Source: an uncultured Azospirillum sp.
Lineage (GTDB): Bacteria; Pseudomonadota; Alphaproteobacteria; CACIAM-22H2
Direction of reading: 5' to 3'
Assembly: GCA_964416335.1 (NCBI GenBank)
Contig: CAYQDN010000014.1
Coordinates: forward strand, 15,107-79,106
Length of the DNA: 64,000 nucleotides
The translations under genes and the position numbers were made by a program. The notes below the pieces were generated by a model, which worked only from the letters and a program-made list of their open reading frames with translations, was not told where the DNA came from and did no database searches. Below are positions 2,396 to 5,087 of this stretch, one piece after another (positions within the stretch are counted from its first letter, which is position 1; each line of letters opens with the position of its first letter).

Positions 2396-2433
2396 CCCCC
2401 GCCGGGTCCCGCCCGGCGGGGGTTTCGATTCTT
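2396..2433 (+). terminator. Rho-independent terminator-like hairpin with an 11-bp GC stem (cccccgccggg / cccggcggggg) followed by TTTCGATTCTT.
   Basis: The hairpin is seen directly in the sequence. It is preceded by a second GNRA-loop hairpin, GGGCC-GCAA-GGCCC, at 2362-2375. It lies at the left edge of the AT-rich island. Confidence 0.6.
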
Positions 2434-2500
2434 ATGGACTAGTCCGTCCAATAAATTGAAAATCAAATAAAATCGATCTTTGATTGTTTTGAGGCAAAAG

Positions 2501-3535
2501 ATGAAGCGGTTCGATACGCGCCCCTACAGCGTTGCCGATTTTATCGAATGGACTGCAAATGGACTCTTGAATTTGAGCCCAGATTTTCAGCGGCGCTCGG
2601 TGTGGAAAGAGTCTGCCCGCTCGTACTTAATCGACACACTATTGCGCGGCCGACCGATTCCGAAAATATTGATCACCCAACATTTAAAGGCAGGAAAAAC
2701 CGTCCGTGTCGTTGTCGATGGGCAGCAGAGGCTTCGCGCAATTTTAGACTATGTCTCAGACTCATTTAAGATTTCCAAAGCCCACAACCCAGAATTCCCG
2801 GTCGTATACTCAAAGCTTCCTGAAGAGATGCAGGATGCTCTCAGAACTTATGAAATATCTTGCGACCTGCTTTATGGCGCTGAGTACGAAGAAATATTAG
2901 ACATCTTTACACGCTTGAACGCGTACACGGTTCCGCTTACTCAACAGGAAAAGCTGAACGCAGAGTACGTCGGCTACTTCAAGCAAACGTCCTACAAAAT
3001 CGGCTATAAATACGTCAAATACTGGTTGGATTCCGGTGTCTTAAGCCAAGATCGAATTGCTCGAATGGGGGAAGCGGAATTGGCCTCCGACCTCACAATC
3101 GCAATGCTCTTTGGCGTTCAAACAAGCAAATCGATTCCGACATATTACAAGCGTTTTGAAGACAACGACACTGCGCTCAAAAATGCTGAGGTTCGATTTG
3201 ATCGAGTCATGTCGATAGTTGGCGCCATATATCCAGTGGCAGAACTTAAAGCGTCGATCTGGAAGAAGGGGCCGTTGTTCTACACCCTTTTTGGAATTGT
3301 CGCTCACAGCCAGTACGGAGTTGCTGGCGTCATTTCAGATCGTCCGAAAATCAACGAAAAGGCGCTTGCTAAGACCCGACAGCGCTTGGATGAAATTGGC
3401 GCGCTTCTGGACCGAAGTCCGACGACCCTCAATAGGGATCAGTTAAAATTCGTCGATGCGTCAAAGCGGCGCACTGCGGACACAAAATCAAGAGCATTCC
3501 GCATCGCATATGCGTGCAAAGAGCTGATCAAATAG
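2501..3535 (+). CDS. DUF262 / ParB-like nuclease-domain protein, of the GmrSD/BrxU N-terminal domain type. It is stand-alone, with no DUF1524 HNH-like domain.
   Basis: The N-terminal motif LSPDFQRRSVW (FQR..W) and the DGQQRL motif (nt 2717-2734) are hallmarks of DUF262. A GAGG RBS lies at 2491-2494 before ATG 2501. The gene sits inside a low-GC island. Confidence 0.8.
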   Translation: MKRFDTRPYSVADFIEWTANGLLNLSPDFQRRSVWKESARSYLIDTLLRGRPIPKILITQHLKAGKTVRVVVDGQQRLRAILDYVSDSFKISKAHNPEFPVVYSKLPEEMQDALRTYEISCDLLYGAEYEEILDIFTRLNAYTVPLTQQEKLNAEYVGYFKQTSYKIGYKYVKYWLDSGVLSQDRIARMGEAELASDLTIAMLFGVQTSKSIPTYYKRFEDNDTALKNAEVRFDRVMSIVGAIYPVAELKASIWKKGPLFYTLFGIVAHSQYGVAGVISDRPKINEKALAKTRQRLDEIGALLDRSPTTLNRDQLKFVDASKRRTADTKSRAFRIAYACKELIK

Positions 3536-3556
3536 CCACAAGTCGGTTTCGCCAAA

Positions 3557-4237
3557 ATGGCCCGCCTTCCAATTACAAGGGTTCCACTTGCTAAGCTCGA
3601 GAAGCATCTTAAGAGCATCGAGAAAATTGACTCAAACAATAGAAAGAGACTACTTCCGAAGCTGGCGCCCATTACGGGTGGCCATGCGCCGATACTATCG
3701 GTGGTGGCCCGCAAACAGAAAAAGTTGGAGCTAGAAACTCTGACAGAAGGACTCTACCTAGCAGTGCATAGAGAATTCGAGGAATTTCTCGAGAGAATAT
3801 TTATGCTTTATCTATCAAGATCAAATTACGTATCGATGTTGGGGGTTAAGGCCCTTGTGCAACCAAAGTCAGAAGAGCACGCGCGCAAATTGTTGAAGGG
3901 CGCTCATCGGGGTAGAGTTGACTGGAACGACACGGGGGTAGTGGCGGATAGAGCGGATATTTATTTTAAATCCGGACAACCATTCTCAGTTGTAATACGT
4001 CCGCGCCAAGCGATTCTCAAGGAAATGCAAATCATAAGGAACCGAGTTGCACATAGCAGCGGCGAAGCTGAAACGAAATTTCAAAATGTCGTGACTGCTT
4101 ATTTCTCGGTACCTCCAATCAATAGAGTTCAGCCTGGAGAATTTCTAAATCTTCCAGCCAAAGCGACGCCATCAATTTCAAATTTTCACTATTTTATTTC
4201 CGTAATTAGAGCGGTGTCTCGAGGCTGTACAGTTTGA
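3557..4237 (+). CDS. Hypothetical protein with a canonical HEPN-type Rx4-6H motif (RNRVAH). It is a putative HEPN RNase partner of the DUF262 protein.
   Basis: The motif IIRNRVAHSSGE lies at residues 161-166 (nt 4037-4054) and is followed by an alpha-helical region. A 21-bp gap separates it from the DUF262 gene. It has the same low-GC composition, and no other recognisable domain was found by eye. Confidence 0.45.
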   Translation: MARLPITRVPLAKLEKHLKSIEKIDSNNRKRLLPKLAPITGGHAPILSVVARKQKKLELETLTEGLYLAVHREFEEFLERIFMLYLSRSNYVSMLGVKALVQPKSEEHARKLLKGAHRGRVDWNDTGVVADRADIYFKSGQPFSVVIRPRQAILKEMQIIRNRVAHSSGEAETKFQNVVTAYFSVPPINRVQPGEFLNLPAKATPSISNFHYFISVIRAVSRGCTV

Positions 4238-4310
4238 TGGTAATTGGACAAATAGCCTTTTAGTGTAGTGCGATTGCTAACAAACGTCAGAAACCGTTGT
4301 TCCTAGAATT

Positions 4311-5087
4311 ATGACCCAGACCGATCTCCTGATCGACAATCCCGCACCCGGCGTGCGGCGCCTCACGCTCAACCGGCCGGCCGCGCGCAACGCGCTGTCG
4401 ACCGACCTGCTCGGCCTCGTCGCCGACGCGCTCGACGCCGCGGCGGACGACGACGAGGTCCGCGCGGTCGTCCTCACCGGCGGCGAGAAGATCTTCGCGG
4501 CCGGGGCCGACATCAAGGAACTCGCCAGCCGCAACGCCGTGACCGCCCTGCTCGACGCGCGCGTGGGCCACTGGCAGCGCATGCGCCGCTTTCCCAAGCC
4601 CGTCGTCGCCGCCGTGTGCGGCTTCGCACTTGGCGGCGGCTGCGAGCTTGCCATGCATGCCGACATCGCGATCGCCGGCGAAAGCGCCAGGTTCGGCCAG
4701 CCGGAGGTCAATCTCGGCGTCGTGCCGGGTGCCGGCGGCACGCAGCGCCTGGCGCGCATCGCCGGCCAGCAGGTCGCGATGAAGCTGATCCTGTCGGGCG
4801 AGATGATCTCGGCAGCAGAAGCCCACGCCTGCGGGCTCGTCGCCGAAATGGTTCCCGACGCCGATGTCGGCGCGCGCGCGGTCGCCCTTGCCGCGAAGAT
4901 CGCCGAGAAGCCGGTCCTCGCGATCCGGCTGGCCAAGGAACTGGTGCTCGCCGCGCGCGACGTGCCCCTCGAGCAGGGCCTGCAGTTCGAGCGCAAGGCG
5001 TTCGCCACGCTCGTCGCCAGCGAGGATTTCAAGGAAGGGGTCGCCGCCTTCATCGAGAAGCGGCCGGCCAAATTCAAAGGACGCTGA
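4311..5087 (+). CDS. Enoyl-CoA hydratase/isomerase (crotonase family)
   Basis: The sequence VLTGGEKIFAAGADIKEL and the crotonase fold signature are present. The protein is 258 aa. Confidence 0.85.
   Translation: MTQTDLLIDNPAPGVRRLTLNRPAARNALSTDLLGLVADALDAAADDDEVRAVVLTGGEKIFAAGADIKELASRNAVTALLDARVGHWQRMRRFPKPVVAAVCGFALGGGCELAMHADIAIAGESARFGQPEVNLGVVPGAGGTQRLARIAGQQVAMKLILSGEMISAAEAHACGLVAEMVPDADVGARAVALAAKIAEKPVLAIRLAKELVLAARDVPLEQGLQFERKAFATLVASEDFKEGVAAFIEKRPAKFKGR

Follow-up and report, generated by a model that had tools for sequence, protein, structure and literature searches.

The 64-kb stretch of DNA analysed here (the window) carries a gene for a 226-aa protein of the HEPN fold, a predicted RNase effector, at positions 3557–4237 (+ strand). 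Together with the DUF262 gene directly upstream, it probably forms a mobile defence cassette of two genes, of the PD-T4-2-like DUF262+HEPN type. The HEPN family itself is unannotated and is unmatched in the profile libraries we searched.

The system type, in contrast, is not new. It was already known, from a prediction of the operon in 2013 and from the demonstration in 2022 that PD-T4-2 acts against a phage. Anantharaman et al. 2013 (PMC3710099) predicted a 'Ribo L-PSP-HEPN ... operon with ParB'. PD-T4-2, from E. coli ECOR65, was described as 'DUF262, HEPN', with a B component that matches PF18735 in HHpred (97.8%) (Vassallo et al. 2022, PMC9519451). Deletion of PD-T4-2 in ECOR65 restores plaquing by T4 (PMC9519451). 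Reviews and the Menshen study place PD-T4-2 among the DUF262 systems without DUF1524 and call it uncharacterised (PMC12065111 for the paper that defines the motifs). Our search of the literature found no mechanistic study of PD-T4-2-like (DUF262+HEPN) systems.

An Rx4H motif is conserved across a large family of small proteins

A sequence-only reading of the window had picked out R-N-R-V-A-H at residues 161–166 and tentatively proposed that the protein is a HEPN ribonuclease. The 226-codon ORF and codons 4037–4054 on the + strand (AGG AAC CGA GTT GCA CAT) confirm R161-N162-R163-V164-A165-H166, which we predict to be the catalytic site (Rx4H, here as RNxxxH). When the 226-aa protein was shuffled 20,000 times, Rx4H arose by chance in 45% of shuffles and RNxxxH in 2.2%. 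At these frequencies in shuffles, the motif alone proves nothing, and the label 'tentative' was justified, as the motif by itself is not significant. The above-chance signal is the conservation of the motif in homologues, not its presence.

We therefore rely on the family. An exhaustive phmmer search (E ≤ 1e-3) yielded 789 cluster representatives at 50% identity, mostly 200–220 aa long. Every one of 96 aligned sequences (alignment A1) has E75, W123, R161 and H166, and E64, F82, N162, S168 and L197 are conserved in at least 90% of them (N162 in 94/96, E64 in 88/96). Rx4H is kept by all 170 family proteins examined, as RNxxxH in 166 and as R[D/H]xxxH in the other four. Whether homologues conserve the motif was a check proposed with the original call, and they do.

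Searches with single sequences recovered little. A word-indexed homologue search with the 226-aa protein returned only a near-identical MAG copy, and a scan of genome contigs with the same single protein gave no match. Scanning with another family member (P0155) found one locus, which was already known. No match was found in phages by tblastn.

The start of the HEPN gene is ATG 3557, since the homologue alignment begins at residue 1 and an N-terminal helix (residues 8–32) is modelled there with a pLDDT of about 98. As publicly annotated, the near-identical MAG copy (P0001, 177 aa; positions 1413–1946 of locus L001) begins instead at a GTG that corresponds to V50, a difference that concerns window positions 3557–3704. 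This copy is probably mis-started in the database; a start at V50 would delete the conserved helix 8–32.

The predicted structure follows HEPN anatomy

According to the published anatomy of HEPN domains, the Rx4-6H motif ends helix 3, a conserved acidic residue in helix 2 lies close to the motif, and a variable insert separates helices 2 and 3 (Anantharaman et al. 2013, PMC3710099). We built an AlphaFold2 model of the 226-aa protein from the 96-sequence alignment. The model is all helical (pLDDT 92.9, pTM 0.90), with helices at residues 8–32, 49–87, 106–114, 126–136, 143–165, 169–182, 193–198 and 209–225. We assign residues 8–32 to helix 1, 49–87 to helix 2, 88–142 to the insert, 143–165 to helix 3 and 169–182 to helix 4, with 193–198 and 209–225 as extra C-terminal helices (all encoded within 3557–4237, + strand).

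In the order of its helices and the places of these residues along the chain, this arrangement matches the published anatomy point by point. The motif, with R161 and H166 present in 96/96 sequences, closes helix 143–165; E75 and E64 both lie within helix 49–87; and residues 88–142 supply the insert. The stretch from E64 to E75 (codons 3746–3781, + strand) contains the candidates, from alignment A1, for the acidic residue of a HEPN active site. The model also agrees with the earlier description of an alpha-helical protein whose motif is flanked by helices, the next helix being 169–182.

Support for HEPN from sequence profiles is weak but consistent. A scan of 96 members against Pfam found that 32 match HEPN_RiboL-PSP at E ≤ 0.1 (best, 7.4e-6), and members also match the Pfam HEPN families HEPN_Cthe2314, Swt1, pEK499_p136, Apea and MAE_28990. 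The family consensus aligns with PF18735 from helix 2 to the motif (residues 59–158 to positions 41–166 of the 191-position profile) at 16 bits and E = 0.011, which does not reach the gathering threshold of 28.4 bits; the window protein has no match to this profile at E ≤ 1. Scattered weak matches of HEPN type (CARF_HEPN, RTasHEPN, AbiD, Cas13, Csm6) were returned when the family was scanned with PADLOC.

The sequence-only reading had called for a HEPN-like match in a sensitive profile or structure search. Relatives gave such matches to HEPN profiles, but Foldseek against the PDB returned nothing significant, with HepT chains over-represented among the top-ranked entries, and the 226-aa protein matched no curated profile at threshold in Pfam, NCBIfam, PADLOC or PHROGs. 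Foldseek against BFVD (viral) likewise gave nothing significant, and a comparison of the 226-aa protein with PDB sequences gave nothing usable. A golgin match from a PDB profile search with A1 was rejected as chance.

HEPN_RiboL-PSP is the family that most resembles ours, both as its best Pfam match and in having the same ParB/DUF262 operon partner. However, all scores of the family fall below 28.4 bits. When the family was compared by hhalign and HMMER with a genuine RiboL-PSP branch that occurs next to DUF262 (alignment A2; Klebsiella/E. coli, 261 aa), the result was not significant beyond the helix of the RxxxxH motif and was partly misaligned; therefore, we make no claim of membership in Pfam PF18735. 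We conclude that the 226-aa protein is a member of the HEPN superfamily with RiboL-PSP as its nearest family, and is not a Pfam member of RiboL-PSP. The invariant motif and the HEPN-like anatomy thus support the call of a putative HEPN ribonuclease.

The upstream gene encodes a DUF262 protein with intact NTPase motifs

The gene upstream of the HEPN gene (2501–3535, + strand) encodes a 344-aa DUF262/GmrSD_N (ParB-like NTPase) protein, a predicted sensor or regulator. A mechanical ORF call starts at TTG 2480. ATG 2501 has GAGG 7 nt upstream and agrees with both the 344-aa public call and the MK(N/R)FDTR start that is common to all homologues. The protein matches Pfam GmrSD_N (2.5e-21, residues 32–163), and in PADLOC it matches NsnA (5.8e-29) better than PD-T4-2_A (1.5e-19), with a further match to 'REase_II' (1e-15).

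All three DUF262 motifs, as defined in PMC12065111, are intact in the window protein and invariant in an alignment of nine partner proteins (A3). Motif I, QRxxxW, reads FQRRSVW; motif II, DGQQR, is encoded at 2717–2731 (+ strand) and is the DUF262 motif for nucleotide binding and hydrolysis; motif III, FxxxN, reads FTRLN. A DGQQR-type motif is needed for defence in the GmrSD-like system HEC-06. Beyond the motifs, the partner has a C-terminal helical region of about 190 aa, which may be 'ParBDB'-like, judging from PADLOC similarity to NsnA and from the literature. An AlphaFold2 model of the partner from its single sequence was uninformative (pLDDT 34). Pfam and PADLOC found no DUF1524/HNH or other nuclease domain in either cassette protein.

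The two genes are strictly paired and lie in an islet of foreign composition

We examined the neighbours of the HEPN gene at 13 independent loci besides the window, on 10 contigs (divergent members included) and three plasmids (Glutamicibacter, Rhizobium, Rhodococcus). In 13/13, a DUF262/GmrSD_N gene (about 347 aa) lies directly upstream, and the gap between the two genes is 2–30 nt. The hosts include members of Pseudomonadota and Actinomycetota and, besides these, a Trueperaceae MAG. Beyond the pair, gene content differs from locus to locus and often comprises mobile or defence genes: integrases, a transposase, HepT/MNT, ParE, TIR, DpnII R-M and prophage cI/Cro-like genes. The HepT/MNT pair, found at locus L003, is separate from the cassette and unrelated to it. 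The suggestion that the two window genes form a sensor-plus-RNase pair fits this strictly conserved DUF262 neighbour and the published DUF262+HEPN system PD-T4-2.

The partners co-diverge. Across nine cassettes (the window, L002–L006 and L010–L012), mean identity is 63% for DUF262 and 45% for HEPN, and identity to the window proteins is 47–51% for DUF262 and 25–32% for HEPN. On these identities, the predicted HEPN effector evolves faster than the predicted DUF262 sensor.

Within the window, the pair occupies a low-GC islet (2430–4290) that holds only the DUF262 and HEPN genes. The GC content of this 1.9-kb islet is about 44–51% (46% overall), compared with 64–73% in the flanks (68%), and composition profiles show no other strongly low-GC stretch within the 64-kb window. 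From the annotation of L001 and the ORFs, the left flank carries an ABC-transporter ATPase gene (1289–2062) and the right flank an enoyl-CoA hydratase gene (4311–5087). A search for integration-site marks at the islet found no flanking direct repeats, tRNA genes or Rfam elements. The composition of the islet is foreign, and the pair was very probably acquired horizontally.

A perfect 12-bp GC-rich hairpin marks the left edge of the islet (2395–2423; inverted repeat I4, also returned by a scan for terminator-like elements). Its arms, ACCCCCGCCGGG and CCCGGCGGGGGT, enclose a 5-nt loop, and it sits exactly at the drop in GC. The hairpin could terminate the region upstream of the islet, or it could be what is left of an insertion site.

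The cassette resembles PD-T4-2 and probably shares the logic of DUF262 systems

Like the window cassette, PD-T4-2 consists of two genes in the same order, an A component that is DUF262/ParB-like without DUF1524 (the window protein matches PADLOC PD-T4-2_A at 1.5e-19 and, in Pfam, GmrSD_N only) and a B component that is a small, single-domain HEPN protein with HEPN_RiboL-PSP as its nearest Pfam family. The two also differ. The window HEPN protein (226 aa; family members about 207–216 aa) is longer than PD-T4-2B, whose length of about 165 aa is judged from HHpred ranges and a span of 1540 bp, and NsnA is a better match than PD-T4-2_A for the window DUF262 protein. Neither the window HEPN protein nor any of 96 relatives matched PD-T4-2_B in PADLOC. 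Since the genuine RiboL-PSP partner from Klebsiella also lacks a PD-T4-2_B match, the PADLOC model for PD-T4-2_B, if present, may be narrow.

GmrSD, BrxU, SspE and Menshen NsnABC share with the cassette the DUF262 module (QRxxxW, DGQQR, FxxxN) followed by a helical region, and the cassette would follow their logic, in which a nuclease effector is under the control of a DUF262 sensor. In GmrSD, BrxU and SspE, the DUF262 part is an NTP-driven sensor and DUF1524 cuts. Unlike GmrSD, the window DUF262 protein has GmrSD_N (residues 32–163) without a fused DUF1524 DNase, and the predicted effector is a separate HEPN protein. The window cassette also departs from Menshen: the HEPN gene is followed by the enoyl-CoA hydratase gene, with no NsnB ABC ATPase and no NsnC inPIN effector, and NsnB and NsnC are likewise missing at 10 related loci. 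By analogy with these systems, the cassette fits the DUF262 logic with a predicted RNase-type effector supplied in trans.

A model in which a DUF262 sensor controls a HEPN RNase

We propose the following model. The HEPN gene would share a transcript with the DUF262 gene upstream, and the translation of the two is probably coupled. By analogy with other HEPN nucleases, which are metal-independent endoribonucleases that usually act as dimers, two copies of the HEPN protein would pair to form a composite active site. RNA cleavage is predicted to occur at the Rx4H site (R161/H166 and N162, with E75 from helix 2). The DGQQR pocket and the C-terminal, DNA-binding-type region of the DUF262 protein would detect invading, possibly modified, phage DNA. 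Binding or hydrolysis of NTP would then change the conformation of the DUF262 protein, and this change would release or activate the HEPN RNase. Cleavage of cellular and/or phage RNA would stop phage multiplication, through abortive infection or direct immunity. Our analysis shows the fold and motif with their conservation, the strict pairing of the genes and the islet's foreign composition; catalysis, dimerisation, the trigger and the phenotype are inferences.

Three other readings have to be weighed, and each is less likely than a DUF262 sensor acting with a HEPN RNase. The first is that HEPN is a constitutive RNase toxin and DUF262 its antitoxin or stabiliser, the pair forming an addiction module. 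Much about the cassette would suit a toxin-antitoxin system: it is compact, with two genes that lie almost end to end and the neutraliser-like one in first place, it has copies on plasmids and beside other toxin-antitoxin genes, and among solved structures the HepT toxins of HEPN-MNT systems (PDB 8xdj, 7ae2 and 5yep) have the nearest folds. Sequence identity to these HepT proteins is 10–13%, and the 226-aa protein exceeds them by about 90 residues, having a large insert between helices 2 and 3 as well as the extra C-terminal helices. However, the HEPN antitoxins characterised so far are MNT nucleotidyltransferases, and there is none here; in the window and at the 13 loci, the adjacent gene encodes DUF262 and not an AMPylating MNT antitoxin. 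The partner is instead a 344-aa, enzyme-like protein whose three DUF262 NTPase motifs are invariant, and DUF262 proteins studied to date are NTP-driven DNA sensors. Moreover, DUF262 is more conserved than HEPN, which is opposite to what is usual for a simple antitoxin. We consider an addiction module unlikely.

A second possibility is that the cassette restricts DNA in the style of type IV systems, with the DUF262/ParB-like protein as the nuclease or nickase and HEPN as an accessory that is non-catalytic or regulatory. Anantharaman et al. place ParB-like domains among the DNases of R-M systems and HEPN genes in R-M-like operons (PMC3710099); the 'REase_II' match of the DUF262 protein and the cassette copy that adjoins a DpnII R-M system point the same way. 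Yet the cassette lacks DUF1524/HNH and any other nuclease domain, the DUF262 part of GmrSD, BrxU and SspE is the NTPase and sensor while DUF1524 does the cutting, and the invariance of R/N/H in HEPN argues for catalysis rather than scaffolding. DNA restriction by the DUF262 protein therefore appears quite improbable to us.

That the HEPN-like helical bundle is not a nuclease and binds a ligand or nucleotide, as in kanamycin nucleotidyltransferase or sacsin HEPN, is very improbable: some HEPN domains are indeed non-catalytic (the 'inactive' entries in Table 1 of PMC3710099), and neither Foldseek nor any curated HEPN model gave a match of significance, but inactive HEPN families typically lack the R or the H (PMC3710099), whereas here both are invariant (170/170) and N, the acidic residue of helix 2 and S168 are conserved as well.

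With the DUF262 sensor and HEPN RNase preferred over these readings, the call turns a 'hypothetical protein' into an RNase effector that can be tested. The profile libraries searched (Pfam and PADLOC, at the thresholds used) miss a widespread partner family of DUF262. Because no profile for component B matches, a PD-T4-2 call that needs one would probably fail at such loci. The cassette, being compact and highly conserved, is a convenient model for communication between a ParB-like NTPase and an RNase.

Tentatively, and with somewhat more doubt than belief, we suggest a broader claim. The window HEPN family, with at least 789 clusters at 50% identity and below detection in Pfam, NCBIfam, PADLOC and PHROGs at the thresholds used, may, in place of the canonical RiboL-PSP branch, supply the obligate effector for a separate lineage of DUF262-HEPN defence that spans phyla. 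In this lineage, an NTP-driven, ParB-like DNA sensor would switch on RNA degradation, and the effector would evolve markedly faster than the sensor, possibly driven by phage inhibitors. If true, this would be a 'type IV restriction sensor wired to an RNase'.

Related proteins and DUF262 partnerships

At one locus (L010, positions 1–2400), the cassette adjoins YbcO and genes of cI-like (HTH_3 + Peptidase_S24) and Cro-like type. It thus lies in the immunity region of a lambdoid prophage, a typical site of prophage-borne defence genes. A megablast search of complete E. coli genomes with this cassette found no match.

One homologue of 463 aa (P0052) joins, in a single ORF, about 250 residues from the C-terminal part of a DUF262 partner (39% identity to that of the window) to the family HEPN domain at residues 290–453. 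No other of the best 150 matches is a long protein. P0052 is either a natural fusion or a frameshift or stop-loss artefact, and because a frameshift may have produced it, we do not count it as evidence.

Of the 96 family members, 21 match Pfam DUF6548 (PF20185), and the match is confined to the RNxxxH helix (equivalent to window residues 139–174; about positions 45–72 of the 164-position profile). From this sequence similarity, DUF6548 may itself be an HEPN family that has gone unrecognised.

A second kind of DUF262+HEPN pair is found on plasmid pC9_001 of Klebsiella aerogenes (L008, positions 2962–4829). Its DUF262 protein matches PADLOC NsnA at 2.2e-75 and PD-T4-2_A at 9.4e-40, and its gene overlaps by 1 nt the downstream gene for a 261-aa HEPN_RiboL-PSP protein (1.2e-19). 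Proteins of this RiboL-PSP type have an invariant RHxxxH, with relatives known from E. coli, Serratia, Vibrio and Aeromonas.

On plasmid pA84-3 of Cronobacter dublinensis (L007, positions 329–1975), the gene that precedes DUF262 encodes a 213-aa protein with a GS...D.D pattern. We checked this gene as a HEPN candidate and rejected it. The 213-aa protein recalls minimal nucleotidyltransferases and may represent another DUF262 partnership.
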